From Candidatus Paceibacter sp. (GTDB taxonomy: Bacteria; Patescibacteriota; Minisyncoccia; Phycocordibacterales; GCA-2747955), in contig JABACC010000007.1 of assembly GCA_014237915.1 (NCBI GenBank), forward strand, positions 1,446 through 65,445: a stretch of DNA of 64,000 nt, written 5' to 3'. Of the stretch, positions 17,979-35,760 are shown piece after piece. The notes under the pieces were generated by a model that had not been told where the DNA came from, did no database searches, and was given only the letters and a program-made list of their open reading frames with translations. Positions within the stretch are counted from its first letter, which is position 1. Each line of letters opens with the position of its first letter. Both the position numbers and the translations under genes were made by a program.

Positions 17979-18045
17979 TTTTTTAATTTTTTGTTTTTTA
18001 GATATATTGATATATAATTTATATTATTAAATTTTAAAAATTTTT

Positions 18046-18525: not shown

Positions 18526-18603
18526 AAAATTAAAACTAATTTTTTAAACAAAAATCCTTTCTATTTTTTGTTTATTTTTCTTTTATACAATATAATATAA
18601 TTA

Positions 18604-19134
18604 ATGTTTGTTGATCCTAAAAAAGTTTTAGAACAAATAGAAATTTTAGAAGGCACTAATGTGGCCGATTTTGGAGCAGGCTCTGGTTTTTATACAAAGC
18701 TTCTTTCAGAAAAAGTTGGACCAAGCGGAAATGTTTTTTCTGTTGAGTTAAACAAAGAGATAAGTCAAAAATTAGCACAAGAGCTGCAAGGAGAAAATTA
18801 TAGAAATATAAATTTTTTAATTTCTGATTTAGAGAAAAAAAATTCTTTAAAAATTGAAAATGAAAAAATTTCCCTGGTGGTTGCTTCTTTTATGTTGTTT
18901 CAAATAAACGATAAAAATTCTTTTGCTGAAGAGGTAAAGAGAGTTTTAATTTCAAAAGGCAGAATTTTGGTAATCGATTGGAAAGATTCTTTTTCTGGAA
19001 TTGGCCCAAACGAAAATCTTGTTTTTTCTGAAAATAAAGCCTTAAAGCTTTTTGAAACTTTTGATTTTAAAGTTGAAAAAAAACTTGATTTGGGAAAATA
19101 CGCTTACGGAATTTTATTTAGAAAAATTAATTAA
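18604..19134 (+). CDS. Class I SAM-dependent methyltransferase
   Basis: Motif I VADFGAGSGFYT. Post-I acidic residue (VFSVE). Motif IV-like LVVASFML. 176 aa. Confidence 0.6.
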   Translation: MFVDPKKVLEQIEILEGTNVADFGAGSGFYTKLLSEKVGPSGNVFSVELNKEISQKLAQELQGENYRNINFLISDLEKKNSLKIENEKISLVVASFMLFQINDKNSFAEEVKRVLISKGRILVIDWKDSFSGIGPNENLVFSENKALKLFETFDFKVEKKLDLGKYAYGILFRKIN

Positions 19135-19143
19135 AAATATAAA

Positions 19144-20448
19144 ATGAAAAAAAAAATAAGTATCTTTCAAATAATTCTTTTAATTTTTTTTGGGGTAACC
19201 GGACTTTTTGGATTTATTGCATTTACAAACTACAGCCCAAGCGGAAATACAGAAACAGAAAATTTAGGGCAAATGCAAATCTGGGGAACTTTAGATGAAG
19301 ATATTTTTAATGAAGGACTTTCTTTTTTGAAAAATTTAGATGAGGGATATTCAAAAGTTTCTTATGTTCAAAAAAGCGAAGAGAGTTTTAATCAAGAATT
19401 TTTAGAAGCGGTAGCTGAAGGAAATATTCCAGACCTTATTTTAGTTTCTAATTCCACAATTTTTAATAATATAAATAAAATTTACAAAATTCCAACTTCT
19501 AGTATTTCTGAAAGTGTTTTTTTTGGGACTTTTTTAGAATCTTTTTCTCCTTTTTTTGAAGAAGATGGATCTTTGGCTATTCCTTTTTTAGCTGATCCAA
19601 TTGTAATGTATTACAACAAAGACCTTTTTTTCTCAGCAGGAATTCCAATCCCTCCTCAAGAATGGAAAGATTTTTTAGAAATGGCTCCTAAGATAAATAA
19701 AATAGATGAAAATAAAAATATTATAAAATCTATTGTGGCTTTTGGAGACGGAGATAACGTGGAAAATTTAAAAGAAATTTTGGCAACACTTTTTTTTCAA
19801 AGCGGAAATCCAATTATAAAAAAAGAAAACGGAATTTATAAATCAACTCTTTATGAAAATTCTTCTTTTCAAACCCCTTACGACGCACTAGATTTTTTCT
19901 CTTCTTTTTCAAATCCAAATGCTCCACAATATTCTTGGAATACCGCTATGCCAAACTCTAAAGATTTTTTCATAGGAGGCTCTTTAGGGGTTTATTTTGG
20001 TTATGCTTCAGAAATTTCTGATATAAGGTTAAAAAATCCAAACTTAAATTTTGATGTAACAGAAATTCCAAGAACATCTTCTGACTTAAGAAATAATGTA
20101 ATGTTAAAAACTTTTGCTTTTGCTATTCCAAAAAGCGCTAAAAATATAGAAAATTCTTCAATTCTTGCCTTTAGAATTGCAAATAAAGATATTTTAGAAA
20201 AAATTGAAGAAAAAACACAACTTCCGCCAGTGCGAAAAGAAATGGTTGCGAATTTAAAAGGTGATAAATATTTGGATATTTTTTATAAAGAAGCAATTTA
20301 CGGAAGCTCTTTTATGGATCCAGACGAAGAAAAAACTGACAAAATTTTTTCTGACCTTGTAAATAATTATATTAGTGGAAGATTTTCCGCCAAAGAATCT
20401 TTTTCTTCTGCTTCAAGATCTATTGACTTACTTCTTCTTGGCAAGTAA
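19144..20448 (+). CDS. Hypothetical secreted/membrane-anchored protein
   Basis: 434 aa. N-terminal hydrophobic anchor and a large extracytoplasmic domain. Vaguely solute-binding-protein-like; no firm motif. Confidence 0.3.
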   Translation: MKKKISIFQIILLIFFGVTGLFGFIAFTNYSPSGNTETENLGQMQIWGTLDEDIFNEGLSFLKNLDEGYSKVSYVQKSEESFNQEFLEAVAEGNIPDLILVSNSTIFNNINKIYKIPTSSISESVFFGTFLESFSPFFEEDGSLAIPFLADPIVMYYNKDLFFSAGIPIPPQEWKDFLEMAPKINKIDENKNIIKSIVAFGDGDNVENLKEILATLFFQSGNPIIKKENGIYKSTLYENSSFQTPYDALDFFSSFSNPNAPQYSWNTAMPNSKDFFIGGSLGVYFGYASEISDIRLKNPNLNFDVTEIPRTSSDLRNNVMLKTFAFAIPKSAKNIENSSILAFRIANKDILEKIEEKTQLPPVRKEMVANLKGDKYLDIFYKEAIYGSSFMDPDEEKTDKIFSDLVNNYISGRFSAKESFSSASRSIDLLLLGK

Positions 20449-20454
20449 AATGTA

Positions 20455-21828
20455 TTGATAATGCATATTTTTTCTAATCTTAAAAAAATTTTAAAAATAT
20501 TTTTTCTTTCAGTTTTTTTTGTATTCAACTTTGTTTTTTCTGAAATTCCAGCAGAAGAAGTTTTTCAGTATTTTTTAGAAAACCCAGAAAAAATATTTGA
20601 AACTGAAGTTCAGGAAGTTTTTTATTCAGCTCAAAATTCTCGGTATGAAATTTCATCTTTAAGTAAAGACAACTCAAATATTTCTTATATTTTTTTTGCT
20701 GAAGAGCAAAGCGGAGAAATTTTTTTTCTTGATGGAGATGGAGAAAAAAAATACACAGGCTACACCGTCACAATTTTACAAGAAAATTCAGATAATGAAG
20801 ACGAAGATATTGAAGATAAAATTTTGGATAACTTAACAGATTTTGAAGGGGTTTACAACGATCAACTTGGGGGAAATAACAAAAGAAATAGTTTTGCTGA
20901 AAACGAAGATGAGGTTGAAAAAACTTTAACACCCTCAGAGCAATTAGAAGAAGCAAATAAAAGTTTGGAAGATACAGATGAAGATATTAAAGATTTAGCA
21001 ATTGAAACGTTAGAAAATTATAGTTCGCTAAAAGAATTTGTACAGTTTAAAGAAACTTTAGATGAGGACGAAGATGGACTTTCTCCTAACTCGGGTACTG
21101 ATCTTTACAGAGACATACTTGAAGATTATTTAGCAAGCGAAGACGGAAAAGAAAAAATCCAAGATCTTTTTGAAAAAAGTTCTGTAGAAGATATTGAAGA
21201 ATTTGTCGATAAGTTTTTTATAGAAAATCCAAATTTAACTAATACTGAAAAAGAAAATTGGATATTTTATCTAGAAGAGTTAAAAGAAGTTGATGAGCAA
21301 AGAGAAATAAGAAAAGCTGAAAATTTCAGCGCTCCAGAAATTAATGAAGATGGGCTAAGTAATTTTGTAGAAGCCGGCCTAAAGGCTGTTTTGAGTGATT
21401 CTCAAGAAGGACGAGGGTCAGAAGAAGGAGATGGCCAAGATCCTAACTGCTATAAATATGACGAAAAAGGGAATCCAGTAAATGATACCAGCAGGGGATA
21501 TGAAAGAGGGCTTGTGAAATATGATCCAGTATGTGATAAAAATACTAAAGGATTTGATGGTTTAATAATGACAATAAATGCGGTCACTAGTTTTGTTACA
21601 GGTATTGCTATTTTTTTATTTGTCGTTACCTTAATTTGGGCAGGAGGAATTTTAATGTTTCAAGGATCAAGTACCGGAGGAAGAGATAAAGCAAAAAAAA
21701 TGATAAACGGGGCAGTTATTGGAATATTTTTCATATTAGGAGCAACATTTATTGTAAGCTCGATTTTTTCTGTTTTCGGATTAGAAGATGAAGATTTAAT
21801 CGAAGGGAGTGTTGAAATATCTCAATAG
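20455..21828 (+). CDS. Secreted acidic protein with C-terminal VirB2/TrbC-like two-helix pilin module (long-form paralog)
   Basis: 457 aa. Signal peptide, roughly 330-aa D/E-rich region, then a C-terminal module (AVTSFVTGIAIFLFVVTLIWAGGILMFQGSSTGGRDKAKKMINGAVIGIFFILGATFIVSSIFSVFG) matching the downstream small paralogs. Confidence 0.4.
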   Translation: MIMHIFSNLKKILKIFFLSVFFVFNFVFSEIPAEEVFQYFLENPEKIFETEVQEVFYSAQNSRYEISSLSKDNSNISYIFFAEEQSGEIFFLDGDGEKKYTGYTVTILQENSDNEDEDIEDKILDNLTDFEGVYNDQLGGNNKRNSFAENEDEVEKTLTPSEQLEEANKSLEDTDEDIKDLAIETLENYSSLKEFVQFKETLDEDEDGLSPNSGTDLYRDILEDYLASEDGKEKIQDLFEKSSVEDIEEFVDKFFIENPNLTNTEKENWIFYLEELKEVDEQREIRKAENFSAPEINEDGLSNFVEAGLKAVLSDSQEGRGSEEGDGQDPNCYKYDEKGNPVNDTSRGYERGLVKYDPVCDKNTKGFDGLIMTINAVTSFVTGIAIFLFVVTLIWAGGILMFQGSSTGGRDKAKKMINGAVIGIFFILGATFIVSSIFSVFGLEDEDLIEGSVEISQ

Positions 21829-21873
21829 ATAAATTTGTTTTTTCTTTTTTTTAGCTTATAATATATTAATATC

Positions 21874-22314
21874 ATGAATCAAATTTTTTCAAAAAAATAT
21901 TTATTTTTTCTAATAATCCCTTTTTTATTTTCTATTTATTTTGTTACTTTTTCTTATAGTGCAGAATCTTGCGCTGGAGATTTTGAGTGTTTACAAAACC
22001 CATTAAAAGATAGCAATATTGGCTCAATTTCAGATTTAATTTCCACAATTTTAAATTTAATAATGATTTTAGCCGTTCCTTTTATAGTTATCGCTATAGT
22101 TTACTCAGGTTTTCTATTTATTCAAGCTCAAGGAAATCCAGAAAAAATAAAAACAGCTAGAAGTTTTTTACTTTGGTCCCTTGTTGGAGCTGGTATTGTT
22201 CTGGGTGCAAATGTTATTTATACCGTCATGGAAGATACATTTAAAAAATTTATTGCAGAAGAGGGTATAGAAAAAATAGAAGAAAAAAATTTAATAGAAG
22301 ATTATTATGTTTAA
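21874..22314 (+). CDS. VirB2/TrbC-like pilin candidate (paralog 2)
   Basis: 146 aa. Signal peptide, hydrophobic helix (LIMILAVPFIVIAIVYSGFLFI), short basic loop (QAQGNPEKIKTARS), second helix (FLLWSLVGAGIVLGANVIY). Confidence 0.45.
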   Translation: MNQIFSKKYLFFLIIPFLFSIYFVTFSYSAESCAGDFECLQNPLKDSNIGSISDLISTILNLIMILAVPFIVIAIVYSGFLFIQAQGNPEKIKTARSFLLWSLVGAGIVLGANVIYTVMEDTFKKFIAEEGIEKIEEKNLIEDYYV

Positions 22315-22663
22315 AAAAAAACAATTTAAAATATTTTTTTTGTTTTTATTAATTCCCTTTTTTTCTTTTTCAGCCAGCTTTTCAGAATTAGTAGACACAA
22401 TTTTTGTCGGAAGTTTAATTAAAGGTTTTGTTGGTTTAATTTTTTCTCTTTCTTTTCTATTTTTTTTATGGAAAGCCTTGCAGGTTATTTTAAACTTTGC
22501 TTCTTCAAAAAGAGGAGAATATTTAAAAGGGCTTTTTTTCAGTATTTTTCTTTTATTTGTAATGTTTTCAATTTGGTCTTTGGTAAACATTGTTTTAAGC
22601 ACTAATTTAAAAACAGGAACAGGATCTTCCGAAGATGTTATTTTTGATAAAATTAAATTTTAA
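22307..22663 (+). CDS. VirB2/TrbC-like pilin candidate (paralog 3)
   Basis: 118 aa. Same signal, helix, K/R loop, helix layout (…FLFFLWKALQVILNFASSKRGEYLKGLFFSIFLLFVMFSIWSLVN). Confidence 0.45.
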   Translation: MFKKKQFKIFFLFLLIPFFSFSASFSELVDTIFVGSLIKGFVGLIFSLSFLFFLWKALQVILNFASSKRGEYLKGLFFSIFLLFVMFSIWSLVNIVLSTNLKTGTGSSEDVIFDKIKF

Positions 22664-22771
22664 ATAAATTTTAAATAAATTTTTAACCCTTCAAATTCTT
22701 TAATCTTTAATTTTGACTTTATTTATTTTTTTTGATATAAAGGTATTATTAATAAGTAAATTTATTTTAAT

Positions 22772-23116
22772 ATGAAAAAAATTTTATTAACTTTGTCAGG
22801 GATTTCAGTTTTACCTGTTTTAGCTTTAGCTGATAATGGAATTGAAGAACTTATAAACACATTAGGAGAATTAATTCAAAGCGCTTCTACTGTTATTTTT
22901 GCTCTTGCAGCTCTTGTTTTCTTTTGGTCTTTAATTACCTACTTATGGGGAGCTGAAGAAAAAAAAGAAGGTGCTACAAAAGGAATTACTTTAAGTATCG
23001 TAGTTTTGTTTATAATGTTTTCAATTTGGGGAATTATTCAAATCCTTCAAGAAACAGTAGATGTTGATGGAGACGACTCAATAGATGTTCCAGAGTTTCC
23101 TGCTTTAAAATCTTAA
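22772..23116 (+). CDS. VirB2/TrbC-like pilin candidate (paralog 4)
   Basis: 114 aa. Cleavable signal (…LPVLALA). Helix 1 STVIFALAALVFFWSLITYLWGA, loop EEKKEGATKG, helix 2 ITLSIVVLFIMFSIWGIIQIL. Confidence 0.5.
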   Translation: MKKILLTLSGISVLPVLALADNGIEELINTLGELIQSASTVIFALAALVFFWSLITYLWGAEEKKEGATKGITLSIVVLFIMFSIWGIIQILQETVDVDGDDSIDVPEFPALKS

Positions 23117-23139
23117 AATAAAATAGTTTTAATTTAACT

Positions 23140-23421
23140 ATGGATAAAGTTGCCAAAATAATTCAAATTTTTGTTACAGAAATTTTAAATCCAATTATTG
23201 TAATTTTGATTTCTCTTTCTGTTGTTTATTTTTTTTGGGGAATGATGGTTTTTATTTTAAATTCTGACGATGAAACAAAAAGAACAGAAGCTAAATCTCA
23301 CATTTTTTGGAGCATTATAGGATTTGTTATTATTTTTGGAGTTTGGGGGATATTAAATTTTGTTGTTTTCAGTATTTATGATTTAACAAACCCAACCTCT
23401 GTTTCAGCAGCAGAAGCTTAA
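23140..23421 (+). CDS. VirB2/TrbC-like pilin candidate (paralog 5)
   Basis: 93 aa. Helix 1 …VVYFFWGMMVFILNS, loop DDETKRTEAKS, helix 2 HIFWSIIGFVIIFGVWGILNFVVF. A terminator hairpin (aaaaagcccgaagggctttttt) follows at about 23445-23470. Confidence 0.45.
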   Translation: MDKVAKIIQIFVTEILNPIIVILISLSVVYFFWGMMVFILNSDDETKRTEAKSHIFWSIIGFVIIFGVWGILNFVVFSIYDLTNPTSVSAAEA

Positions 23422-24168: not shown

Positions 24169-26109
24169 ATGAGTAAAATTATAGGAATAGATTTAGGAAC
24201 TACAAACTCTGCTGTTTCTGTGATGGAAGGAGGAGAGCCTAAAATTTTGGAAAATGCTGAAGGCTCCAGAACCTCACCTTCTGTTGTTGCAAAAACAAAA
24301 GCAGGAGAAAGAGTTGTTGGAATGCTCGCAAGACGCCAAGCAGTTACAAACCCAGAAAATACAGTTGTAGGAATTAAAAGATTTATTGGTCATTCTTTTG
24401 ACGAAAACGAAGTTCAGGAAAATATAAAAAAAGTTCCTTTTCAAACAAGAAAATCTAAAAACGGAGGAGTTGAAATAAAAATGGGAGAAGATTGGCATAG
24501 GCCAGAGGAAATTTCCGCTTTTATTTTACAAAAACTTAAAGCGGATGCAGAAGAAAAATTAGGTTCTGAAGTTAAAGAAGCTGTTATAACAGTTCCAGCT
24601 TATTTTAACGATTCTCAAAGACAAGCCACAAAAGACGCAGGAAAAATCGCAGGCCTTGAAGTAAAAAGAATTATAAACGAACCAACAGCAGCAGCCCTTG
24701 CTTATGGTTTTAACAAAAACACAGATCAAAAAATAGTTGTGTTTGATTTTGGAGGAGGAACATTTGATGTTTCTGTTTTAGAAGTTGGAGACGGAGTTGT
24801 GGAAGTTAGATCAACAGCAGGAGATCATAATATGGGAGGTCGAGATATTGATTATAAAATTATCGATTGGATTGCAGATGAATTTAAAAAAGAAAGTGGA
24901 ATTGATCTTAAGAAAGATCCACTTGCTCTGCAAAGATTAGATGAAGCGGCTGAAAAAGCAAAACTTGAACTTTCAACTTCAAACGAATCTAACATAAACA
25001 TTCCCTTTGTTACTTCTACAGACGAAGGTCCAAAACATTTAGACTTAACTTTATCGAGAGCAAAGCTTGAAGAAATTGCAGATAAATATATTTCAAAATC
25101 AATAGAAATTACAAAAAAAGCTATCGCAGATTCACCTTTTGAAATTTCTGACATAAATGAAATTATTTTAGTTGGAGGACAAACAAGAATGCCAAAAATT
25201 ACCGAAGAGGTAAAAAATCTTTTTGGAAAAGAGCCAAATAAATCGATTAACCCCGATGAAGTTGTGGCAAATGGAGCCGCTATTCAGGCGGGAATTTTGC
25301 AAGGAGATGTGAAAGATGTTCTTCTTCTAGATGTCACACCGCTTTCTCTTGGAATCGAAACACTTGGAGGAGTTTCCACAAAATTAATTGAAAAAAACAC
25401 AACAATTCCAGCTTCAAAATCTCAAGTTTTTTCAACAGCGGCAGAAAACCAAACTTCAACAGAAATTCATGTTGTGCAAGGTGAAAGATCAATGGCATCT
25501 GACAATAAATCTTTAGGAAGATTTGTTTTGGAAGGAATTCCACCAGCTCCAAGAGGTGTACCTCAAATTGAAGTTACCTTTGATTTAGACGCTAACGGAA
25601 TTTTAAACGTTAAAGCAAAAGACAAAACTTCAGGAAAAGAAAATTCTATTAAAATTGAAGGGTCGTCAGGTCTTTCAGAAGATGAAATAAACAAAATGAA
25701 AGCAGATGCTGAAACTAATGCAGAAGAAGATAAAAAGAAAAAAGAAGTTGTGGATGTAAAAAACCAAGCTGAACAAATAATTTTTCTTGCAGAAAAATCT
25801 TTAAAAGATGCTGAAGGAAAAATTTCAGAAGAAACGAAAAAAGAAATTGAAGAAAAAATAGCTTCTTTGAAAACAGTTAAAGAAGGAGAAGATTTAGAGG
25901 CAATTAAAAAATTTTCCGACGAGCTAAATCTTTCTTTGCAAAAAATTATGGCAGAGATGCAAAAAGCAGGAGAAGAAAAAAAAGAGGAAGGAGAAAAATC
26001 GGAAGATGAAAATTCTTCAGAAGAACAAGAAGCAGAAGTTGTTGAAGACGAAAACAAAAACGAGGAAGAAGAAAAAAAAGATTCTGAAAGCGAAGAAGAA
26101 AAAAAATAA
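24169..26109 (+). CDS. dnaK: Molecular chaperone DnaK (Hsp70)
   Basis: Hsp70 signatures [27 protein letters not shown]-terminal acidic/EEKK tail. Confidence 0.95.
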
Positions 26110-26131
26110 AAAATTTTATTTCAATTCTAAA

Positions 26132-26160
26132 AAAAATCACCCGAAAGGGTGATTATTTTT
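26132..26160 (+). terminator. Intrinsic terminator after dnaK
   Basis: aaaaaaatcacccgaaagggtgattatttttttg: GAAA-loop hairpin plus T-run. Confidence 0.5.
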
Positions 26161-26250
26161 TTGAAATAAAAAACTTATCCCCAGAAATTTTTTTTGAAAT
26201 TTTTTTATGTGTTAATATAAATTTAAATTAGTAACTTTAACAATATAAAA

Positions 26251-29200
26251 ATGGCAAATCGATCTTTTAAAATTTTTTTAACTTTAGTATTTTTTTTAAC
26301 ACCTTTTATTTCTTTTGGGGCTGATATTTATCTTCAAAAAGATAATGCTTTATGGTCTGATCCCACAGCTTGGAGTGGAGGAGTTTTACCAACAAGTTCC
26401 GATAATGTTTATTTAAAAAAAGAGGACGGAACGGAGTTTGATAAAATTACAATTGATTCTGTCGCAACCTATTTATCTATGGATGCTTCAAACATTAAAG
26501 AAATTGATGTAAAGTATAATTTATATAGATCAATAGAAGCGCCAAATTCCATTGTAAATTTTTACAATGGAAGCAACCAAATAGCATCATCTAATTTTAA
26601 AATAAAAGCCAAAGAAATATATTTTAAAGAAGGCACCGTAGAAATTATTCGCTATCCTTATTTTGAGGCAGATAAAATAGTAGTAGAGGAGAATGCTAGT
26701 ATTTATATTTCTATAACCGCGTTAGGTTATTATAATTCTATAGAAATAAAAGGAGACTTAATTCATAATGGAAAATTTTTTGGAGTAAGGGATTTTGATA
26801 TAAATCTCGATGGAAGTTTTATTAATAATGGAGAGATGGAAGATGTTCATCACTTTTATATTTCAAAAAATATTGAAAACAATTCAGTTTTACCAGATGA
26901 TTTTTATTTTCGGTATAAAACAAGCACATCAAAAAATCACCCAGTTGAAATAAAAGGTTCTGAAAAAGTTTCCTTAATTGTGACAAATGATTCAAACAAT
27001 ATTTTTTATTTTCATGATTCCGTTGATCTTAAAAATTTTTATTCTTATTATGATTCATCAGTTATAGACACAGAAAATAGTTTAAGTATTTATCTTGAAG
27101 ATGGAAAAAGTTTTAAAGCAGAAAAAGTTTATGGTCATAACGTATATTTTTTAAACAATAATAATTTTCATTTAGAATCATACGGCTCTATTACTTTTTC
27201 TCCGTATCGACTTCCAAATATTTATGCAGAAAAATCAACTGTGATTATTGAGGGAGATGGTATTTTTAAGGAAATAAAAGCAAAAGAAATATATTTTTTG
27301 GAAGGGATTCATGAGTATCCCTATAAAGGAAATACAATCACAGCGGATAATATAGTTTTAGAAGAGGGCTCATATATTCGTAATAATCAAGACCCGTACC
27401 AAAGTGGGGTAGAACCACTGACCATAAATGGAGATGTGAAAAACATGGGTTCCTTAGGAGATGATAACTTTATTATAAATGGAAACCTAGAAAATAATGG
27501 GAATGTAACAAACTTCAAGACAATTAAGGTGTATGGAGATGTATATAATAATGGTACATTTCAAGAAAACTCAAGAGGCGATTCTCCAACAATTTTTGCA
27601 TATGGAGATTTCTATAATTTTGGAACATACACATCACGAAACTTTTATTCCTATGGAAATATAGATTCAAGTGATATATTAGAAACAAGTATTAATCTAT
27701 ATGAAAACGTTGATGGAATCCATAAAAAGCTATCTTTTTCTGGAGATTATTTAAATTCAAATCTTATTATTAGGGAAAATATAACCTTAGATAAATCAGT
27801 AAGAGAAATTCCTTTTGATATTGAAGATGCAGAAATTATTGTAAATTCTAACTTCCTAGAGGTTCCAACTTTAAAGAATTCTAAACTTGAAGGAGATTTT
27901 GTTTTAGAAGTAAGAAATATTATAGACACTGAAGCTTTAAACGTAAAAGTTAGTGTAAGTAACGATATCGGAGGAAATATTTCGGTGAAAAATATAGTGC
28001 TCACTTCAGGAGATTTAGAAAATGGAGTAAACAGAGTAAGTGATGACGTGGTAAGGTTTGAAACGCTCGAGATAGAAGAGAATGTCTCTCTAGAGGTTTA
28101 CAAAAGGGCACCAAAACTTTATGGAAAAATTCTAAACAAGGGAACAATTTATGGCCTCGACAACTATCAAGAATTGTTATTCATTTTTGAGGATTTCAAC
28201 AATCAAGGAATAATTGAAAATGAAATATCTGTGTATTTTTATTTTAACAAAGAAATTAACCAAACCAATCAATATTTCATAAAAGAAGGAACTTCTTTTT
28301 CAGAACCATCAGTTGATGAAATAAAAACAGGATATTCAGCTAGGGTTGAGGACTATCTAAACCAAACAGACAAAGAATTTTCAATTTGGTATAAACTTCC
28401 AGAAGAATCCGAATGGAAAGTAAATTATTTTAATGTTGATTTTGAAATTCCAGAAATTGTTGTTCCTCCTCCAGAACCTGAAACTTTAGAATTTTCTTTT
28501 TCTAACATCGAAGATCATTTAAAAAACGAAGAAGTAGAAATTACACTAAGCGCTGCAAGGAATTTGCAAGATAGGGATTCTAAAGTAAGAAGAAAAGAAA
28601 TGTATTTTTATCTTTCTACAAACAAAGGAGATATTGTTTATCCTTCTGTTGTAACTTTTGCAGAAGATGGAGATTATTATGAAAAAGAAAAAACTTTTTC
28701 TATGAAAATAGATGAAGCAGAAAGTGATATTGAAATATATATTAAAGATAGTGAGGGAAATCTTTTAGGAACTTCAAAACCTTTTTCTGTAGTAGAGTCG
28801 GGAAAAGCTTATTTTAAATTTAGAGAGGATCATTATCATAGGTATGATTTGGACATAAAATTAGGAACAAAAGACTACTCTTTTGAATCCACAAAATCTA
28901 TAAATTTAATGGTTTTACCTTGCGATGAAAATCTCTCTGTTATACCAAAAGGTAATATTTTTATTCCAAGCGACACAGGCCTTATACATCAAGAATTTTT
29001 TTATCTACCAATACAAGTTAACATATCTTGCGACACAACAGATACGATAGAAATAGCAAAATCTATTCCCTACGAAAATTGGGTTTGTGAAGACTCAGAC
29101 AAAACCCCAGTTTTACTTTTACCGGGGATTATGGGCTCTGATACAAAATTTAACCTTTCTGTTTACCCTCAAATACCAAAAGATTCCCCTGCTTGGGATT

Positions 29201-30201
29201 CTGAAAAACTTGTTTTACATGATCCAGGACCAGCTAATTTTTCAGTAGGTTGGGAAAATCTTAAAGATGAGCTTAGGAGCGAAGGTTACAGAGGAGGTTG
29301 CAATATTATAGATGTTCCCTACGATTGGAGGTTAGAAATTCCAGAAATTAGAGATTTATACCTAATCCCTTGGATCGAAGAAGCAAAAAGACTAACAGGT
29401 AAAGATGAAGTTGATATTGTAGCTCATTCAATGGGCGGGCTTGTGGCCAGATCTTTTATTCAATCTTCAAAACATTTAAACGAAGTGAGAAATTTTGTAA
29501 TGGTAGGAACTCCAAACTCTGGCTCAGCCTCAACTTATCCTATCTGGGAAGGAGGGGATCCAATTTTAGTAGATAAAAATACTCAAGATTTATCAACTAT
29601 TGGAGGATATGTATCAAAGTATTTTTACACCAACACTATAAATAAAAATTATAAAAAAGTTATCGAAGATAAAGATTTATGCATTTGGGAATCAGGATTT
29701 TTACCTGCTCCAATTTATTGCAACAAAGAAAAAGTTTATGATTTTTTACATACATACTCTCCTTCTGTTGGAAACTTAATGCCAACATACCCCGGAGCTT
29801 TAAAAGATCATCTTAGCGAAGCAGATTTAAATATATCAGCTGAGCCAAATAATTTTCTTCTTGCTTTAAATAGTGGAGGAGATTACGGCAGAGATACATA
29901 TATTCACCCAGACGATATTAATAATAAAATATCAGGAGAGAGTATTCTTTTTTATGGAGATAATTTTGATACAATAGAAAATATAAAGGTAGATCAAAGC
30001 TTTTCTCATCAATTTTTGTATCAAGATGGAAAACCTTCTGGCCTAGATTTTATAATTAAAAATCAAGGAGACAAGACAGTTCCTAAAGTCTCAATACCGA
30101 TAGGTAATATTAATTTATCTTCTGATGTTTCAGATCAGGAACACGGGCGACTTATAAATGATTTAAAAGAAGAAATTGTTGAGTTTATTAATAATAATTA
30201 A
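26251..30201 (+). CDS. Giant secreted surface protein with C-terminal LCAT-like alpha/beta-hydrolase (phospholipase/acyltransferase) domain
   Basis: 1316 aa. N-terminal signal peptide (FLTPFISFGADIY). Roughly 900 aa of Asn/Gly/Tyr-rich repetitive beta-type sequence. C-terminal domain with PYDWR (the LCAT/PDAT-family YDWR motif), nucleophile elbow VAHSMGGLVAR (GxSxG), and downstream Asp/His candidates. Confidence 0.6.
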   Translation: MANRSFKIFLTLVFFLTPFISFGADIYLQKDNALWSDPTAWSGGVLPTSSDNVYLKKEDGTEFDKITIDSVATYLSMDASNIKEIDVKYNLYRSIEAPNSIVNFYNGSNQIASSNFKIKAKEIYFKEGTVEIIRYPYFEADKIVVEENASIYISITALGYYNSIEIKGDLIHNGKFFGVRDFDINLDGSFINNGEMEDVHHFYISKNIENNSVLPDDFYFRYKTSTSKNHPVEIKGSEKVSLIVTNDSNNIFYFHDSVDLKNFYSYYDSSVIDTENSLSIYLEDGKSFKAEKVYGHNVYFLNNNNFHLESYGSITFSPYRLPNIYAEKSTVIIEGDGIFKEIKAKEIYFLEGIHEYPYKGNTITADNIVLEEGSYIRNNQDPYQSGVEPLTINGDVKNMGSLGDDNFIINGNLENNGNVTNFKTIKVYGDVYNNGTFQENSRGDSPTIFAYGDFYNFGTYTSRNFYSYGNIDSSDILETSINLYENVDGIHKKLSFSGDYLNSNLIIRENITLDKSVREIPFDIEDAEIIVNSNFLEVPTLKNSKLEGDFVLEVRNIIDTEALNVKVSVSNDIGGNISVKNIVLTSGDLENGVNRVSDDVVRFETLEIEENVSLEVYKRAPKLYGKILNKGTIYGLDNYQELLFIFEDFNNQGIIENEISVYFYFNKEINQTNQYFIKEGTSFSEPSVDEIKTGYSARVEDYLNQTDKEFSIWYKLPEESEWKVNYFNVDFEIPEIVVPPPEPETLEFSFSNIEDHLKNEEVEITLSAARNLQDRDSKVRRKEMYFYLSTNKGDIVYPSVVTFAEDGDYYEKEKTFSMKIDEAESDIEIYIKDSEGNLLGTSKPFSVVESGKAYFKFREDHYHRYDLDIKLGTKDYSFESTKSINLMVLPCDENLSVIPKGNIFIPSDTGLIHQEFFYLPIQVNISCDTTDTIEIAKSIPYENWVCEDSDKTPVLLLPGIMGSDTKFNLSVYPQIPKDSPAWDSEKLVLHDPGPANFSVGWENLKDELRSEGYRGGCNIIDVPYDWRLEIPEIRDLYLIPWIEEAKRLTGKDEVDIVAHSMGGLVARSFIQSSKHLNEVRNFVMVGTPNSGSASTYPIWEGGDPILVDKNTQDLSTIGGYVSKYFYTNTINKNYKKVIEDKDLCIWESGFLPAPIYCNKEKVYDFLHTYSPSVGNLMPTYPGALKDHLSEADLNISAEPNNFLLALNSGGDYGRDTYIHPDDINNKISGESILFYGDNFDTIENIKVDQSFSHQFLYQDGKPSGLDFIIKNQGDKTVPKVSIPIGNINLSSDVSDQEHGRLINDLKEEIVEFINNN

Positions 30202-30203
30202 AT
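30141..30203 (+). repeat. Junction repeat copy 1 (3' end of giant-protein CDS + RBS/start of downstream gene)
   Basis: …aatgatttaaaagaagaaattgttgagtttattaataataattaaatATG…, repeated nearly identically at 30541 and 30921. Confidence 0.8.
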
Positions 30204-30539
30204 ATGAATATTATAGAAAAAATAAATATAAAATTAATATTGTTAACAATATATATATATATATATATAAATTTAGGCGGAGCTTATTTGGTATTTCAAT
30301 TTTCTAGAAGTTCTATGTGGGGTCAAGATTTTGACAATATTTTAAGTCATTTATTAGAAGTTCTAAATACTCTTTTTAACTTAATGTATTCTAACTTTTT
30401 AATATTTTTATTATTATTTACTTTTTCTTTTTTTCTTTCCAAGTTTTTCTTAAAAAAAGAAAATAAATTATATTATATTTTATTCCACATTTTAGCCTTA
30501 CCTGCATCTTTTTTTGGGTATTTTATTTTAGTTGTATAG
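30204..30539 (+). CDS. Small polytopic membrane protein (cassette paralog A); immunity-protein-like position
   Basis: 111 aa. Conserved N-terminus MNIIEKINIKLILLTIYIYIYI and C-terminus YILFHILALPASFFGYFILVV shared with the next ORF; middle diverged. Contains (AT)10 at 30249-30269. Confidence 0.4.
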   Translation: MNIIEKINIKLILLTIYIYIYINLGGAYLVFQFSRSSMWGQDFDNILSHLLEVLNTLFNLMYSNFLIFLLLFTFSFFLSKFFLKKENKLYYILFHILALPASFFGYFILVV

Positions 30540-30540
30540 G

Positions 30541-30600
30541 TTAGTAAATGACTTAAAAGAAGAAATTGTTGAGTTTATTAATAATAATTAAATATGAATA
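30541..30600 (+). repeat. Junction repeat copy 2
   Basis: gttagtaaatgacttaaaagaagaaattgttgagtttattaataataattaaatatgaatattatag: duplicates the last roughly 50 nt of the giant CDS plus the start of the small gene. Confidence 0.8.
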
Positions 30601-30920
30601 TTATAGAAAAAATAAATATAAAATTAATATTATTAACAATATATATATATATATATATTAGTCTGGGGGGAGTTTTTGCAACAATGATATTTTCAGATTT
30701 TCGTATAGATGAATTAGTTACCGCTTTTTTTTATTCTTTTATTCCTTTTTTTATTTATATTTGGAGTAAACACTTTGTTATTTCTTTGATTTCGGTGATC
30801 ATCTCTTTTTCACTTGTTAAATTTAATATGATAAAAAAAATAAAAAAAATCTACATAATACTATTTCATATTTTAATTTTACCCCTTTCTTTTTTTGGGT
30901 ATTTTATTTTATTTGTATAG
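30594..30920 (+). CDS. Small polytopic membrane protein (cassette paralog B)
   Basis: 108 aa. Same conserved termini as paralog A with a different central segment. (AT)10 tract at 30639-30658. Confidence 0.4.
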   Translation: MNIIEKINIKLILLTIYIYIYISLGGVFATMIFSDFRIDELVTAFFYSFIPFFIYIWSKHFVISLISVIISFSLVKFNMIKKIKKIYIILFHILILPLSFFGYFILFV

Positions 30921-30980
30921 GTTAGTAAATGACTTAAAAGAAGAAATTGTTGAGTTTATAATTAATAATAATTAAATATG
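30921..30980 (+). repeat. Junction repeat copy 3 (with 5-nt insertion)
   Basis: gttagtaaatgacttaaaagaagaaattgttgagtttataattaataataattaaatATGaaaaatc… The ATG at 30976 opens a 21-codon frame that stops inside an (AT)6 tract, 1 nt out of frame with the 31010 ORF. Confidence 0.75.
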
Positions 30981-31009
30981 AAAAATCTAAAAGAATTTAT
31001 TAAAAAAGA

Positions 31010-31627
31010 TTGGTGGAGATTAATATTAATATATATATATTAATATTAGTAATTTTCCCTAATATTTTAATAGGATTATCATTTAGTATAACATATTTTG
31101 AATTTATTACATATTACCTTGAAGAAACAAAAACAATCTTTCTTACACTAGGTATAGCTTTTGGTTTTTTCTTATTTTTTCTATCAATATTTAAATTTAT
31201 TTTTGTAGAAAAATATTTTCTAGCATTTAACACATTTTTCGCAATCTCCCTGCCTACGATATACAGCGTTTTACGTATAGGAGAAGTATCAAGTCTTTTT
31301 TACGCAATACTTATGATGTTTATTTTTTTCGTAATTGTCCCTTTGGTATTTGAAAGTATATTTAAAGAAAAATATTTTTTATTTTTTAATGCGTTTATAC
31401 TCTTATTAGCAATTTTTATTTTTTCTTTTTTAAATTCGATAGTTTTATATTTTTTTTTAGCTCTTGCTGTATACATAATTTTACTTTTATTTTTTCTATC
31501 AATATTTAAATTTTCTCTTAATGAAAAAGTTAGAAATTACATAACAATATCTTTATTTTTTTTCTATATATTTTTCTTCGTAGCTCTATATTTTTATTTT
31601 TATAATATTTTTATACCCAGTCTTTAA
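31010..31627 (+). CDS. Polytopic membrane protein (cassette-associated); N-terminus possibly phase-variable via (AT)n
   Basis: 205 aa, roughly 6 TM helices. An internal near-repeat (FFLFFLSIFKFIFVEKYFL ... LLLFFLSIFKFSLNEK) suggests internal duplication. Confidence 0.35.
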   Translation: MVEININIYILILVIFPNILIGLSFSITYFEFITYYLEETKTIFLTLGIAFGFFLFFLSIFKFIFVEKYFLAFNTFFAISLPTIYSVLRIGEVSSLFYAILMMFIFFVIVPLVFESIFKEKYFLFFNAFILLLAIFIFSFLNSIVLYFFLALAVYIILLLFFLSIFKFSLNEKVRNYITISLFFFYIFFFVALYFYFYNIFIPSL

Positions 31628-31637
31628 TTTTTAAAAA

Positions 31638-32219
31638 ATGCAAAGTTTAGAAAAATTAAAAAAAAATATTCAAAAAAACTTTTATGTAATTTTAGCTTTT
31701 TTAATTCCATTAATTCTTATTATTTCAGTAGCTTTAAATATTTATTTTTCTGCACTTTCTGTTAATTCCAGCCATGAATTTATCTACACTTCTTGCATGA
31801 AAAAAAATACAGATTGCGATAATAGTTATAGAGAAAATTATAAAGAAAATTTTTATTCTGTTTCTAATAAAAAAATAATTAAAAATTTTGAAGAAGGCCA
31901 AGTTGTAGATGAAAAAGAGATTGAAAAAAGAGATATTCCAAATCTTTTTATATACAATCCTGAAAATAATTCTAGCAGAGAGGTTCTCTTTGAAGAGATA
32001 GAAAATCTAAAAATTAGAGAACAAATCACTTCCCCAGAAGGAGTTATACTTTTATATGATTTTGACAGAAATCCTGGAGGTTTTTTATTGTTTGAGGGAG
32101 GTGGTTATGACTATGAATTTTTTTTAGCAAAAGAAAATAAAAAAAGAAAAATAAATCTAATTTCAAATGGAACAAGGTGGGAAAAACCAATCCATTTTAT
32201 TGGTTGGATAGAAAATTAA
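31638..32219 (+). CDS. Hypothetical membrane-anchored/secreted protein
   Basis: 193 aa. N-terminal TM and a soluble domain with two Cys. No motif recognised. Confidence 0.3.
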   Translation: MQSLEKLKKNIQKNFYVILAFLIPLILIISVALNIYFSALSVNSSHEFIYTSCMKKNTDCDNSYRENYKENFYSVSNKKIIKNFEEGQVVDEKEIEKRDIPNLFIYNPENNSSREVLFEEIENLKIREQITSPEGVILLYDFDRNPGGFLLFEGGGYDYEFFLAKENKKRKINLISNGTRWEKPIHFIGWIEN

Positions 32220-32236
32220 TTAAATAATCAAAAAAT

Positions 32237-32770
32237 ATGAAAAAAGAAAAAATATTAGAAGAGCTTGCTTTAAAAATTATAAAAAAAGAAATAAGTAAAG
32301 ATGAAGTTGATATAGTGGCTCATTCAATGGGCGGGCTTGTGGCCAGATCTTTTATTCAATCTTCAAAACATTTAAACGAAGTGAGAAATTTTGTAATGGT
32401 AGGAACTCCAAACTCTGGCTCAGCCTCAACTTATCCTATCTGGGAAGGAGGGGATCCTATGGAAGTAGATATTTTACTAGGCGGAACTTTCGCTATCATT
32501 TTTTTTAACGAAGGAGATATATCGATGCTCAAATGGAATATTTTATATTTTTTGTTTACCATCTTTTGTGTTTTTCTATCTGTTAAAATGAAGAGTACTT
32601 CCATTTTATCTATTAATACATTATTTTTACTTTTATATATTTCTTATAATGTTAATGAATATTTTTCAAACTCCGTCAGCTTTCCTTTTTTGATCATCGT
32701 TTTAGGTTTTATTTTTTTACTTTTCGGATATCTTGCATTTCATTTTAATAAAAAATATATTAAAAACTAG
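32237..32770 (+). CDS. Orphan fragment: duplicated lipase active-site segment fused to a hydrophobic C-terminal region (possible pseudogene or recombination cassette)
   Basis: nt 32300-32460 are near-identical (one or two mismatches over about 160 nt) to nt 29401-29560 of the giant CDS. These encode EVDIVAHSMGGLVARSFIQSSKHLNEVRNFVMVGTPNSGSASTYPIWEGGDP. Flanks are unrelated; the C-terminal 100 aa are TM-rich. Confidence 0.35.
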   Translation: MKKEKILEELALKIIKKEISKDEVDIVAHSMGGLVARSFIQSSKHLNEVRNFVMVGTPNSGSASTYPIWEGGDPMEVDILLGGTFAIIFFNEGDISMLKWNILYFLFTIFCVFLSVKMKSTSILSINTLFLLLYISYNVNEYFSNSVSFPFLIIVLGFIFLLFGYLAFHFNKKYIKN

Positions 32771-32879
32771 AACTTAAAAATATCTGGGGATAAGTTTTTT
32801 ATTTTTTTAAAAAAGTGTGCTTTAATGTATTTAAGCGAAAATAACTTTTTTCTGCTCTTTGTAATATAATTAATTCGAT

Positions 32880-33761
32880 ATGATAAATTTTAAAAATAAT
32901 TTTAAAAAAATATTTTATATATTTTTTTGTTTACCGGCAATGTCTTTTGCTTCTGACTTTTCTTTTTCTTTCCCTGGATTTGTTAACGGATATGTGGAAA
33001 ACCAAAATGGAGAAAAAGCCGGAATTTTTGATTTGGATATTTGGGAAGAAATTGAAGGATATGATTTATATTTAAGCACTGAAAACGGAAGCAGAATAAC
33101 CTTGAATGAAATTGAAGACGGAAATTATAAAATATTTTTACAAGCATATGAAGAAATTGGAGAATATGAAACAAGTATTTTATTTGTTAATGATTTAGGC
33201 GATGTAAATTATTATTCACAAAATCATTATTTAAAGACTGGAAGAAACATAGATCTTCTAAATTTTTCTATAGAAAACGGAGAACTTGTTCTAGGTAAAG
33301 AATTTTCTCCAGTTGACGGAGTGAAGATAGATTATAGAAGTGGCCAAGAATTTTTACTTTGGAATGAAGTAGCTGGAGCCATAGCTTATGATATTTTTAA
33401 AAAAATGCCCGGAGAGGAAATACAAAATTTATATTCTATATCTGGAACGGAAACCCAGCTTATGGTCACAACTCCAAAAAGTTCAGAGTTTTATATTTCT
33501 GCAGTTTTTTCTAGAGAAAGTGGAGTTAAAGAAAAATCAGTCTTACATTATGGATCTTTAGGAACTTATGCTCCTGGGAAAGATGACGACGAAGATTCTA
33601 TCTCTGATTACTGGGAAGATGTTATTGGAACAGACAAAAACAATCCAGACTCAGATGGAGACGGAGTGGGAGATTTGGAAGAGATTTTAGGGGGGACAGA
33701 CCCAACCGTTGCAGATGTTTGGGAAGAAATCGTTTTATTTTTTAAGAGACTTTTTAGTTAA
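32880..33761 (+). CDS. Secreted protein with C-terminal thrombospondin type-3-like Ca-binding repeats
   Basis: 293 aa. Signal peptide (…CLPAMSFASDF). C-terminal D-rich DxDxDG-type motifs (DDDEDSISDYWEDVIGTDKNNPDSDGDGVGDLEEILGGTDP). Confidence 0.4.
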   Translation: MINFKNNFKKIFYIFFCLPAMSFASDFSFSFPGFVNGYVENQNGEKAGIFDLDIWEEIEGYDLYLSTENGSRITLNEIEDGNYKIFLQAYEEIGEYETSILFVNDLGDVNYYSQNHYLKTGRNIDLLNFSIENGELVLGKEFSPVDGVKIDYRSGQEFLLWNEVAGAIAYDIFKKMPGEEIQNLYSISGTETQLMVTTPKSSEFYISAVFSRESGVKEKSVLHYGSLGTYAPGKDDDEDSISDYWEDVIGTDKNNPDSDGDGVGDLEEILGGTDPTVADVWEEIVLFFKRLFS

Positions 33762-33797
33762 TTTATAAAATTTATTTTTTTGTTAAAATAGCTTTAA

Positions 33798-34103
33798 ATG
33801 AAAAAAAATTTTCAACAAAAAGTTTTGGAAAAAATAGAAAAAATTCCTAAAGGAAAAATAGTTACTTATAAAATTTTAGCTAAAAGTTTAAACTCAGATG
33901 CTTATCGCGCCGTAGGATCTTGTTTGGCAAAAAATAAAAATCCTGAAAAATTTCCTTGCCACCGAGTTGTTCGTTCGGATGGAAAAATTGGTGATTATGC
34001 TTTTGGAGGAGAAAAAAATAAAAGTAAGATTTTAAAAAAAGAGGGGATAAATATAAAAAATAATAAAATTGTAGAAATGGAAAAATTTTTATATAAATTA
34101 TAA
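33798..34103 (+). CDS. Methylated-DNA-protein-cysteine methyltransferase DNA-binding/active-site domain protein (Ogt/MGMT-like, stand-alone C-terminal domain)
   Basis: 101 aa with a PCHRVV active-site motif and the helix-turn-helix of the MGMT C-domain. Confidence 0.65.
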   Translation: MKKNFQQKVLEKIEKIPKGKIVTYKILAKSLNSDAYRAVGSCLAKNKNPEKFPCHRVVRSDGKIGDYAFGGEKNKSKILKKEGINIKNNKIVEMEKFLYKL

Positions 34104-34128
34104 AAAATATTAATTTAATTAATTTATT

Positions 34129-34410
34129 ATGAAAGCAATTTGGAAAGACAAGATTTTAGCAGAAAGTGACAAAACTATTGTTATTGAAAATAATCATTAT
34201 TTTCCAGCAGAATCTTTAAATATGGAATTTTTTGAAGAAAGTTCACACACCTCTGACTGCCCTTGGAAAGGACATGCAAAATATTATTCGGTTGTTGTTG
34301 ACGGAGAAAAAAAATCTGACTCAGCTTGGTATTACCCAGAACCTTTTGATGCAGCTCAAGAAATAAAAGGAATGGTTGCTTTTTGGAAAGGAATTGAGAT
34401 TATTCAATAA
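34129..34410 (+). CDS. DUF427-family small protein
   Basis: 93 aa. Pattern …HYFPAESL…CPWKGHAKYYSVVVDG…AWYYPEP… recalled as typical of DUF427. Confidence 0.45.
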   Translation: MKAIWKDKILAESDKTIVIENNHYFPAESLNMEFFEESSHTSDCPWKGHAKYYSVVVDGEKKSDSAWYYPEPFDAAQEIKGMVAFWKGIEIIQ

Positions 34411-34453
34411 TTTTTTTTAATTTTTCTAATTTGGAAATTTAAATAAATTTGGG

Positions 34454-34487
34454 GGCGGAAAAATTGGCGAAGCCAATTTTTCCGCCG
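34454..34487. terminator. Palindromic GNRA-loop hairpin (family member 4)
   Basis: ggcggaaaaattggc-gaag-ccaatttttccgcc between the DUF427 gene and tyrS. Confidence 0.4.
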
Positions 34488-34539
34488 CACTTATTTCTAT
34501 TTTAAAAATTTTATAAAAAAAATTTGCTATAATTTAAAA

Positions 34540-35760
34540 ATGTTAAAAAATTTTTTTGAAAAAAAAATAAAAATAAATACTGATGAGAAAAAAATTTCGG
34601 AAGTTGTTTCCAGAGGCGTTGTGAAAAATTTTCCCTCTGATGAATTTTTAAGAAAAAAACTTTCTTCAGGAGTTGCTCAAAAAATTTATTTAGGAATCGA
34701 TCCGACTGGCCCAACTTTGCATATGGGGCACGCCGTTTCTTTAAAAAAATTACAAGCTCTTCAAAAAATGGGCCATAAAATTATTTTATTGATTGGGGAT
34801 TTTACTGCCCGAATTGGTGATCCTGACAAAAAAAATGTCAGATCTCAACTTTCACATAAAGAGGTTTTAGAAAACTCTAAACTTTATAAAAAACAAGCAG
34901 AAGTTTTTTTGAATTTTTCTGGAAAAAATCCAGCTTCTTTAAAATATAATCACAATTGGCTTTCTAAATTAAATTTTGAAGATGTTATAAAACTTTGTTC
35001 GAAGGTGACAGTTCAAAGAATGCTTGATAGAGATATGTTTAGAAAAAGAATGACAGAAGAAAAACCAATTTATCTTCATGAATTTTTATATCCATTAATG
35101 CAAGGTTATGACGCAGTTGCAATGGATGTAGATGGAGAAATCGGAGGAAACGACCAAACTTTTAATATGCTCACAGGGCGAGATTTAATGAAAGAATATT
35201 CAGGAAAAGAAAAATTTGTTATTCCTATGAAACTTTTAGTTGATAATTCTGGTTCCAAAATGGGAAAAACAACAGGAAACATGCTTTCTTTTTTAGATTC
35301 AGCAGACGAAATGTTTGGAAAAATTATGTCTTGGAATGATGAAATGATTGTTTTAGGATTTGAGCTTTTAACAGACAAAAATTTAGAAGAAATTACAAAA
35401 AGATTAGAAAGTGGAGAAAACCCAAAAAATTTAAAAACAGAACTTGCTTTAGAAATTATTGAAATTTTTTACAACAAAGAAAAAGCACAAAAAGCACAGA
35501 AAAATTGGCAAGCTCAGTTTTCAGAAAGAGGAATTCCGGAAAATTTAGAAGAGATAGAAATTTTAAATGGCGAGAAAATTTTAGAGGTTTTGAAAAAAGC
35601 AGAATTTATTTTTTCCAACAAAGAAGGAAAAAGAAAAATTGACGAAAAGGCAGTGCAAATTGATGGAGAAAAAATTTTAGATTATGATTTTTCTTTTAAT
35701 AAAAACGGGGAAAAAATTTTAAAACTTGGAAAAAAAATGAAAAAAATTATTATTAAATAA
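34540..35760 (+). CDS. tyrS: Tyrosyl-tRNA synthetase
   Basis: Class I signatures GIDPTGPTLHMGHAV (HIGH) and KMGKT (KMSKS). C-terminal S4-like domain. 406 aa. Confidence 0.85.
   Translation: MLKNFFEKKIKINTDEKKISEVVSRGVVKNFPSDEFLRKKLSSGVAQKIYLGIDPTGPTLHMGHAVSLKKLQALQKMGHKIILLIGDFTARIGDPDKKNVRSQLSHKEVLENSKLYKKQAEVFLNFSGKNPASLKYNHNWLSKLNFEDVIKLCSKVTVQRMLDRDMFRKRMTEEKPIYLHEFLYPLMQGYDAVAMDVDGEIGGNDQTFNMLTGRDLMKEYSGKEKFVIPMKLLVDNSGSKMGKTTGNMLSFLDSADEMFGKIMSWNDEMIVLGFELLTDKNLEEITKRLESGENPKNLKTELALEIIEIFYNKEKAQKAQKNWQAQFSERGIPENLEEIEILNGEKILEVLKKAEFIFSNKEGKRKIDEKAVQIDGEKILDYDFSFNKNGEKILKLGKKMKKIIIK

Follow-up and report, generated by a model that had tools for sequence, protein, structure and literature searches.

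We noticed that a 64-kb stretch of the genome of the uncultured, ultra-small Patescibacterium Candidatus Paceibacter sp. (contig JABACC010000007.1; hereafter the window, 27.4% GC) contained three AT dinucleotide tracts, each of which lay within the 5' coding end of one of three consecutive genes for small membrane proteins, referred to here as cassette genes A, B and C, and that these genes came directly after a gene for a large secreted lipase. In frame simulations, the number of AT units in each tract determined whether the corresponding gene was read to its full length. The AT tracts could thus be simple sequence repeat (SSR) contingency switches that act at translation via slipped-strand mispairing, the best-supported reading, for which we nevertheless judge the case to be evenly balanced. 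The initial annotation of this DNA had likewise proposed slipped-strand phase variation, which fits the anatomy of the tracts (perfect, unique, located in 5' coding sequence and with effects on the reading frame), while its frame arithmetic and its details of paralogy required correction.

The tract of cassette gene A was (AT)10 followed by one A at positions 30249-30269, that of B was (AT)10 at 30639-30658 and that of C was (AT)6 at 31029-31040, all on the + strand. The letters of the window and a repeat census bore out these positions, which were those given in the initial annotation. All three tracts were perfect repeats that were long enough for hypermutability by published thresholds, which for dinucleotide repeats are about 5 units, or 10 bp, or more (PMC2651432; PMC3315296). 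Long SSRs of at least about 10 bp are generally avoided, and their N-terminal placement is a signature of phase variation (PMC3315296). In the whole window, tracts A, B and C were the only AT runs of at least 5 units; the census of all simple repeats found one other AT run, (AT)4 at 28735, and no dinucleotide run of any type with more than 4 units outside the three tracts. The matches to the 12-mer ATATATATATAT were confined to the three tracts, and none was found in 100 dinucleotide-preserving shuffles. Given this confinement, the empty shuffles and a census that otherwise reached no more than 4 units, the tracts are real and far beyond chance.

The tracts all started 45-51 nt past the ATG that came after a repeated junction described below, and by hydropathy all three fell within the first hydrophobic segment, the predicted membrane helix 1 of the respective protein. 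The tract codons of A and B were ATA-TAT and encoded Ile-Tyr, and the sequence IYIYIYI that had previously been read through both tracts was in frame in each of them, as both the open reading frame (ORF) list and the frame simulation indicated. The GC content was 20% across the cassette array (30000-32000) vs. 27% in the window, and the AT skew was negative there, which reflects the T-rich codons of membrane proteins.

Cassette gene A (30204-30539, + strand) encoded 111 aa and began 2 nt past the lipase stop codon, and cassette gene B (30594-30920, + strand) encoded 108 aa. By hydropathy, about three membrane helices were predicted in each of A and B and about five in C. The proteins A and B were 52% identical (BLASTP E 5e-21). 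Their dN/dS was 0.40 overall and 0.18 in the last 25 codons, and their dS was about 0.8-1.1, which points to an old duplication under purifying selection. In contrast to this clear relationship, no significant protein similarity was found between C and either A or B (BLASTP E 0.33 and 1.1, respectively), and what C had in common with A and B was limited to the upstream junction and the position of the tract. The description of the three genes as consecutive paralogues therefore applies to A and B and is overstated for C. In all three units, the proposed reading frame had a higher codon score than any of the other five frames. The codon scores of A, B and C were below those of housekeeping genes, as is expected of very hydrophobic proteins.

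Simulation of tracts with different numbers of AT units showed that A and B were full length at n = 4, 7, 10 and 13, and that C was full length at n = 2, 5, 8 and 11. Tract lengths that were out of frame gave products of 18-37 aa. Thus, changes in unit number other than multiples of 3 truncated the product and lengths that were 3 units apart restored it, so that alternative lengths, which the initial annotation had suggested to examine, both restored and disrupted the ORFs depending on the unit count. As assembled, A and B were each in frame at 10 units (ON), and the (AT)6 tract of C gave a product of 21 aa. The 5' piece of C that began at the conserved ATG (30978-31043, + strand) read MKNLKEFIKKDWWRLILIYIY and ended at a stop codon at 31041-31043, which is the OFF reading at 6 units. 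The body of C (31010-31627, + strand) was a 205-aa open frame that was listed from TTG 31010 and contained the five or so predicted membrane helices. It was the tract itself that separated this body from its ATG-led, Lys-rich leader. In the initial annotation, the conserved ATG of this third copy had been placed at 30976 and 1 nt out of frame with the 205-aa ORF; it occupied 30978-30980, and it was indeed out of frame with the body, by 2 nt. Nor did one additional TA unit fuse the two pieces as had been calculated, because this gave a product of 28 aa; fusion took one unit fewer or two more, i.e., the body was joined to ATG 30978 at (AT)5 or (AT)8.

The body of C was intact. Its frame had 207 open codons vs. 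a maximum of 137 in shuffled sequences, and 207 was reached by none of 5000 shuffles. The ATG-led version of C had five Lys/Arg residues ahead of the helix, and the ATG frame scored highest among all six in codon usage, albeit across 21 codons only. The source gene caller had not called C, which is absent from the source annotation. We found no Shine-Dalgarno motif before any gene of the window. Instead, an extended -10 box, TGnTATAAT, ended 6-9 nt before the ATG in about half of 42 genes and exactly 6 nt before it in 12 genes; examples of this pattern are at 8289, 10241, 34540, 51169, 53843 and 58939. The combination of missing Shine-Dalgarno motifs and closely placed -10 boxes points to mostly leaderless mRNAs, a pattern that favors ATG as the start codon. 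TTG 31010 had neither a -10 box nearby nor a leader that was positively charged or free of acidic residues, so that translation of C from this codon is unlikely and no credible alternative start exists. On these grounds, and as C was uncalled, we read C as OFF in the consensus.

The tract of C differed in its surroundings from those of A and B. It was the center of a 29-nt near-palindrome that consisted of A and T only (31020-31048), Tandem Repeats Finder identified a period-6 ATTAAT array at 31019-31048, and the RNA fold of this region had a z-score of -2.7. Around the A and B tracts RNA folding was no better than in shuffled sequences, and the C palindrome alone stood out. Further downstream, C contained three internal in-frame repeats (31165-31528) at intervals of 159 and 156 nt, or 53 and 52 codons, and each of them ended in a ...SIFKF..EK-like motif. 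These repeats suggest that C grew through in-frame duplication of a two-helix unit.

Upstream of both B and C, the terminal ~50 nt of the lipase gene recurred as a copy, referred to here as a junction. The original of these junctions was the 3' terminus of the lipase gene itself (..DLKEEIVEFINNN*) with its 2-nt spacer (30163-30203, + strand). Junction copy 2 (30540-30593, + strand), ahead of B, was a non-coding duplicate of this 3' end. In junction copy 3 (30921-30977, + strand), ahead of C, a 3-nt insertion resulted in a perfect TATAAT at a distance of 15 nt upstream of the ATG; a promoter scan identified the promoter-like sequence TTAAAA-17-TATAAT at 30934-30962 in this copy. The 26-mer TTAAAAGAAGAAATTGTTGAGTTTAT occurred exactly three times, at 30163, 30553 and 30934, where none was expected.

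The near-identity between A and B was not restricted to the junction. The A block at 30163-30268, which comprises the junction along with the first 22 codons and the tract, differed from its counterpart in B by 1 mismatch in 106 nt, whereas directly past the end of the tract there were 20 mismatches in 30 nt, with TATAAA following the tract in A vs. TATTAG in B. Such a near-identical block in genes with a dS of about 1 elsewhere argues for a recent gene conversion that ended at the tract. A chimeric 177-aa ORF (32237-32770, + strand) had a comparable breakpoint. It consisted of a new 20-aa start, a duplicated lipase fragment (32281-32471) that was 94% identical to 29385-29575 and contained the nucleophile motif, and a hydrophobic body that began with LLGGTFAIIFF. 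In the six-frame translation of the window, the motif LGG.[FY][AL] had three occurrences, two of them immediately behind tracts A and B and one at the breakpoint of the chimera, and the 8-mer TAGGCGGA was found at 30274 and 32478 only. The body of the 177-aa ORF had no significant BLASTP similarity to A or B, and the short motif and the 8-mer were their sole links. These links make it probable that the 177-aa ORF represents the body of a fourth cassette that has had its leader and tract replaced. Since the A/B block and the chimera both break at the position of the tract, this position is a recombination boundary as well. The direct repeats 29385-29575 and 32281-32471 lie 2.9 kb apart; if they recombined, the C-terminus of the lipase could be lost together with A, B, C and the gene for a 193-aa protein that follows C.

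The same layout was identified in a distant Patescibacteria metagenome-assembled genome (MAG), H41-bin075_1 (JBBTQZ010000031.1, 3143-9226), where the gene order was dnaK, dnaJ, a gene for a beta-helix and lipase protein, and a membrane gene. The lipase protein had 953 aa and was 29% identical to the lipase of the window over 379 aa. A 124-aa membrane protein began one base past its stop codon, and a paralogue of the 124-aa gene was located 2.85 kb downstream, behind a duplicate of the final 65 lipase codons with 98% identity in the encoded protein. The 293-nt repeat that comprised this duplicate extended over the first 30 codons of the membrane gene. Comparison of A with the 124-aa protein gave a BLASTP E of 6e-4 over 45 residues with the common motif ILxxILxLPAxxFxY, and the match between an A/B profile and the membrane proteins of H41-bin075_1 was weak (E 0.11). 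Judged by its position and motif, A is a probable homologue of the H41-bin075_1 membrane protein. The modules of H41-bin075_1 are interspersed with GC-rich hairpins TGGGGGAGGGTCACCCTCCCCCA (3144, 6393 and 9670).

No other relatives of the cassettes were found. Among 5.8 billion proteins the only homologues of A were A and B themselves, a profile built from A and B retrieved A and B only from 1.84 billion representatives, and the lipase matched only itself in the protein search and led to no related locus in GTDB genomes. No homologue of the restored C was found; that this search did not even return C itself is explained by C never having been called as a gene. The best matches of DnaK were 74-77% identical and came from MAGs of Patescibacteria, also known as the Candidate Phyla Radiation (CPR). 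At 90% identity, every protein that was looked up, DnaK included, formed a cluster of its own among 15 billion sequences, which indicates that the lineage has been sampled once and that there is no sister strain for a comparison of tract lengths. A JGI metagenome lipase (Ga0265596_1001840) with 40% identity over 52 aa was too distant to be regarded as a relative of the locus. An AT-rich intergenic stretch upstream of this distantly related lipase-domain gene contained a (TA)5 run at 4851-4860 that may belong to a promoter. The window corresponds to part of the 66-kb ENA scaffold BUSC20-1_SAMN14422900_METAG-scaffold_178. From 30930 to 32347, it was identical base for base, including (AT)6, to a contig that Logan had assembled independently from SRR11455651.

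If the tracts are contingency switches, each cassette would have a common 5' module that consists of a copy of the lipase 3' end, an ATG, a short charged leader and the start of helix 1, with an (AT)n run embedded in the helix-1 codons. Strand slippage during replication would add or remove AT units, and the frame between the ATG and the body would be kept only at n = 10 ± 3k in A and B or at 5, 8 and 11 in C. As other tract lengths would end translation after 18-37 residues, each gene could be switched off and on independently and reversibly. The sequenced consensus would then represent a state with A and B ON and C OFF, and the loss of one unit would turn C ON. Through gene conversion, the 5' module would be copied together with its tract from cassette to cassette, and exchanges would also end at the tract. 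We infer that slippage would proceed here at a useful rate, that it would be reversible and that the tracts would be selected rather than tolerated. It may be speculated that the membrane proteins and the lipase work as partners, e.g., for self-protection or anchoring.

Several observations weigh against such a switch. H41-bin075_1 has no dinucleotide run of at least 5 units and no repeat at the equivalent site; thus, the module of lipase 3' end and membrane gene is older than the AT tract, a derived feature of this AT-rich genome. No length variant was seen; the second assembly over tract C, by Logan, has the same (AT)6 and is unbroken through the tract, and the collections searched contained no homologue of A, B, C or the lipase beyond this contig. 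The equal tract lengths of A and B follow from their recent gene conversion and count as one observation, not two. The differing states of the three tracts (ON, ON and OFF) within one consensus are the sole hint of length variation. The tract of C is short and flanked by interrupted AT/ATTAAT, and may be a microsatellite that is decaying in a dead gene. A neutral origin is also possible because Ile/Tyr-rich helix codons in DNA of 20% GC could seed an AT run. Indeed, the tracts could be neutral, fragile microsatellites rather than adaptive switches, the AT run having arisen by slippage in one cassette and been copied by conversion, an explanation that we regard as tenable although not probable. 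The tract would then serve as a breakpoint for conversion or illegitimate recombination, and C would be frameshifted and inactive or would yield a low-level product from TTG 31010. The abrupt end of the near-identical A/B block at the last base of the tract, the swap of lipase for cassette sequence at the tract-equivalent position of the chimera, the AT palindrome around the C tract, the low local GC, the same cassette logic without any repeat in H41-bin075_1 and the constant length of tract C in both assemblies all agree with this explanation. It does not account for the lack of any other AT run of at least 5 units in equally AT-rich parts of the window, including membrane-protein genes and intergenic DNA, or for the purifying selection on A and B, which yet retain a 20-nt frameshift hazard at their 5' ends. 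The body of C, moreover, has no second lesion in 207 codons, which is unexpected in an old pseudogene. A neutral origin is nevertheless compatible with the switch model, as an AT run of 10 units would slip whatever its origin.

Two further explanations were considered. That the tract is a transcriptional switch, in which a promoter spacer of variable length tunes downstream or opposite-strand transcription, is very improbable even though a promoter spacer is what the TA repeat forms in both documented switches (PMC2651432; PMC3053259). The promoters of this genome are rich in AT and a TTAACA hexamer immediately precedes the A and B tracts, but the tracts lie 45 nt within ORFs under protein-level selection and are followed by sequences that differ between A and B. 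The promoter scan, moreover, returned 49 sites vs. 42.9 in shuffled sequences, which is no excess, and listed no + strand promoter that used the A or B tract as a spacer; and no ATG was found 6-9 nt past a tract, the distance typical for the promoters of this genome. We also hold it to be most unlikely that the tract lengths or the frameshift in C are assembly or sequencing artefacts that resulted from stutter in the polymerase chain reaction (PCR) or from repeat collapse in the tandem array. AT dinucleotide runs do stutter in PCR-based libraries, the cassettes have exact stretches of at least 80 nt in common that can confuse assemblers, and the contig differs in length between its ENA and NCBI versions (66229 vs. 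66386). However, the Logan assembly reproduces 30930-32347 exactly, a 12-nt run is well inside read accuracy, and each tract is directly followed on its 3' side by unique sequence to which reads can be anchored.

The large secreted protein upstream of A (26251-30201, + strand) had 1316 aa and contained a signal-peptide-like leader, as judged by direct reading of the sequence, an extended repetitive body and, at the C-terminus, a lipase domain. This LCAT/PGAP1-like domain at about aa 1000-1150 had the nucleophile motif HSMGG and matched Pfam LCAT (3.7e-16) and PGAP1 (6e-8), and its closest solved relative was Group XV phospholipase A2 (4x90, E 7.6e-7). The 193-aa protein downstream of C (31638-32219, + strand) belonged to the same gene string, had one N-terminal membrane helix and a soluble part and contained no tract; its AlphaFold model was of poor quality, with a pLDDT of 45. 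A, B, C and the 193-aa protein had no matches in Pfam, NCBIfam or PADLOC, scans of the locus proteins against the same three collections revealed no secretion-system marker, and an Rfam scan of 26000-33000 returned nothing. The Pfam lists of called genes within 10 kb on either side included no recombinase, integrase or reverse transcriptase. Variation of the shufflon, integron or diversity-generating retroelement type was considered and set aside on this ground. Just upstream of grpE-dnaK, five small genes at 20455-23300 had type IV secretion system (T4SS)-pilin/TrbC-like Pfam matches.

The whole lipase-cassette locus is bracketed by a 29-nt inverted repeat whose left arm (26164-26192) and right arm (32776-32804) are 97% complementary and 6.6 kb apart, and a weaker third copy is found at 4535-4553. 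The core of the inverted repeat, CTTATCCCCAG, resembles the DnaA-box-like sequence TTATCCACA. The repeat could mark the ends of an island or be a regulator site. We also compared the locus of the closest DnaK relative (10001-21656) with positions 24169-35760 of the window. In both, ogt and tyrS were found ~7.5 kb after dnaK, while the genes between dnaK and ogt-tyrS were different and those of the relative included no lipase. The conserved anchors with differing genes between them indicate that the region that holds the lipase-cassette locus is a variable island.

That simple repeats can drive phase variation is textbook knowledge, and the more original by-product of this analysis is the architecture in which cassettes are linked to a lipase. 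No description of SSR on/off switching in the CPR was found in the literature, in which the overlapping reports were covered only in part; a report of phase variation in Gracilibacteria concerns an in-frame 9-mer repeat. With considerable doubt, we suggest that the locus may be the first SSR contingency locus seen in the CPR, in which an episymbiotic Patescibacterium would keep an array of individually switchable membrane proteins, encoded by orphan ORFs (ORFans) and wired to a secreted LCAT-like phospholipase, while a portable switch module would be spread among the cassettes by conversion. The conservation of the lipase and membrane-gene module in H41-bin075_1 would then point to a lineage-wide effector/partner system for host or own membranes that has been made phase-variable in this genome. 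If this is true, it would represent convergence with the surface variation of Helicobacter and Mycoplasma. If the tracts switch, ultra-small, host-dependent Patescibacteria would use a bet-hedging trick of classical pathogens, and a secreted phospholipase would be linked to the switch. The handling of lipids is considered a central part of the life of Patescibacteria on their hosts. If the tracts do not switch, they are an ordinary microsatellite in a duplicated ORFan. Regardless of switching, the lipase and the small membrane gene, which recur in a distant genome, constitute a candidate effector/partner pair in organisms where almost nothing has an assigned function.

The layout of the locus is similar to that of polymorphic toxin/immunity loci, such as the contact-dependent inhibition (CDI), Rhs and type VII secretion system (T7SS) lipase-immunity arrays. 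In both, a large secreted protein has a C-terminal enzymatic domain, here a lipase, a small gene follows within 1-2 nt, extra copies of the small gene are each located behind a 3' fragment of the big gene and an additional internal fragment of the enzymatic domain is found further downstream, and the layout in question recurs in a second Patescibacteria genome. In contrast to those loci, the locus described here has no secretion-system marker and no match to toxin or immunity families, and its variable part is a small membrane protein rather than an enzymatic tip; SSR switches, for their part, are not a described feature of toxin/immunity loci. The vlp/vsp families of Mollicutes have a homogenised 5' module of promoter and leader and divergent bodies. 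Tandem paralogues with a near-identical upstream region and leader and with diverged bodies are likewise found here and in H41-bin075_1, although the proteins are not lipoproteins, have no repetitive extracellular region and possess a 5' module that includes a piece of a lipase gene.

With regard to the repeat itself, the hif genes (hifA/hifB) of H. influenzae are switched by (TA)9-11 (PMC2651432), and poly-TA tracts of at least 10 units precede the variable lipoprotein genes of M. mycoides (PMC3053259). These switches have the same unit as the tracts described here and about the same number of units, ~10, and M. mycoides is also an AT-rich, host-dependent organism with a reduced genome in which the repeats lie ahead of clustered surface-protein genes (PMC2651432; PMC3053259). 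The tracts of hif and of the Vmm type are, however, located between the -35 and -10 elements and alter transcription, whereas those of the cassettes are within ORFs, where they would cause frameshifts. As the tracts are inside ORFs and no promoter that spans a tract was listed, the cassettes do not belong to this promoter-spacer class. In H. pylori, oipA is switched by CT dinucleotide repeats in the region that encodes the signal peptide (PMC10564699), and the CT repeat of oipA is the closest documented analogue of the AT tracts. The unit there is CT (Leu-Ser) rather than AT (Ile-Tyr), there is no sequence homology, and the H. pylori proteins are beta-barrel adhesins whose switching has been documented in hundreds of isolates, whereas the cassettes encode tiny, multi-pass ORFans of the inner-membrane type in an environmental Patescibacterium, for which switching is a proposal. 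What oipA and the sabA/babA class share with the cassettes is a dinucleotide repeat in the 5' coding region for the hydrophobic N-terminal leader of an envelope protein, which in the cassettes is a putative one, a frame that shifts between ON and OFF with the gain or loss of units, as would be expected of the AT tracts, and the presence of several paralogues, each of which has its own tract (PMC10564699).

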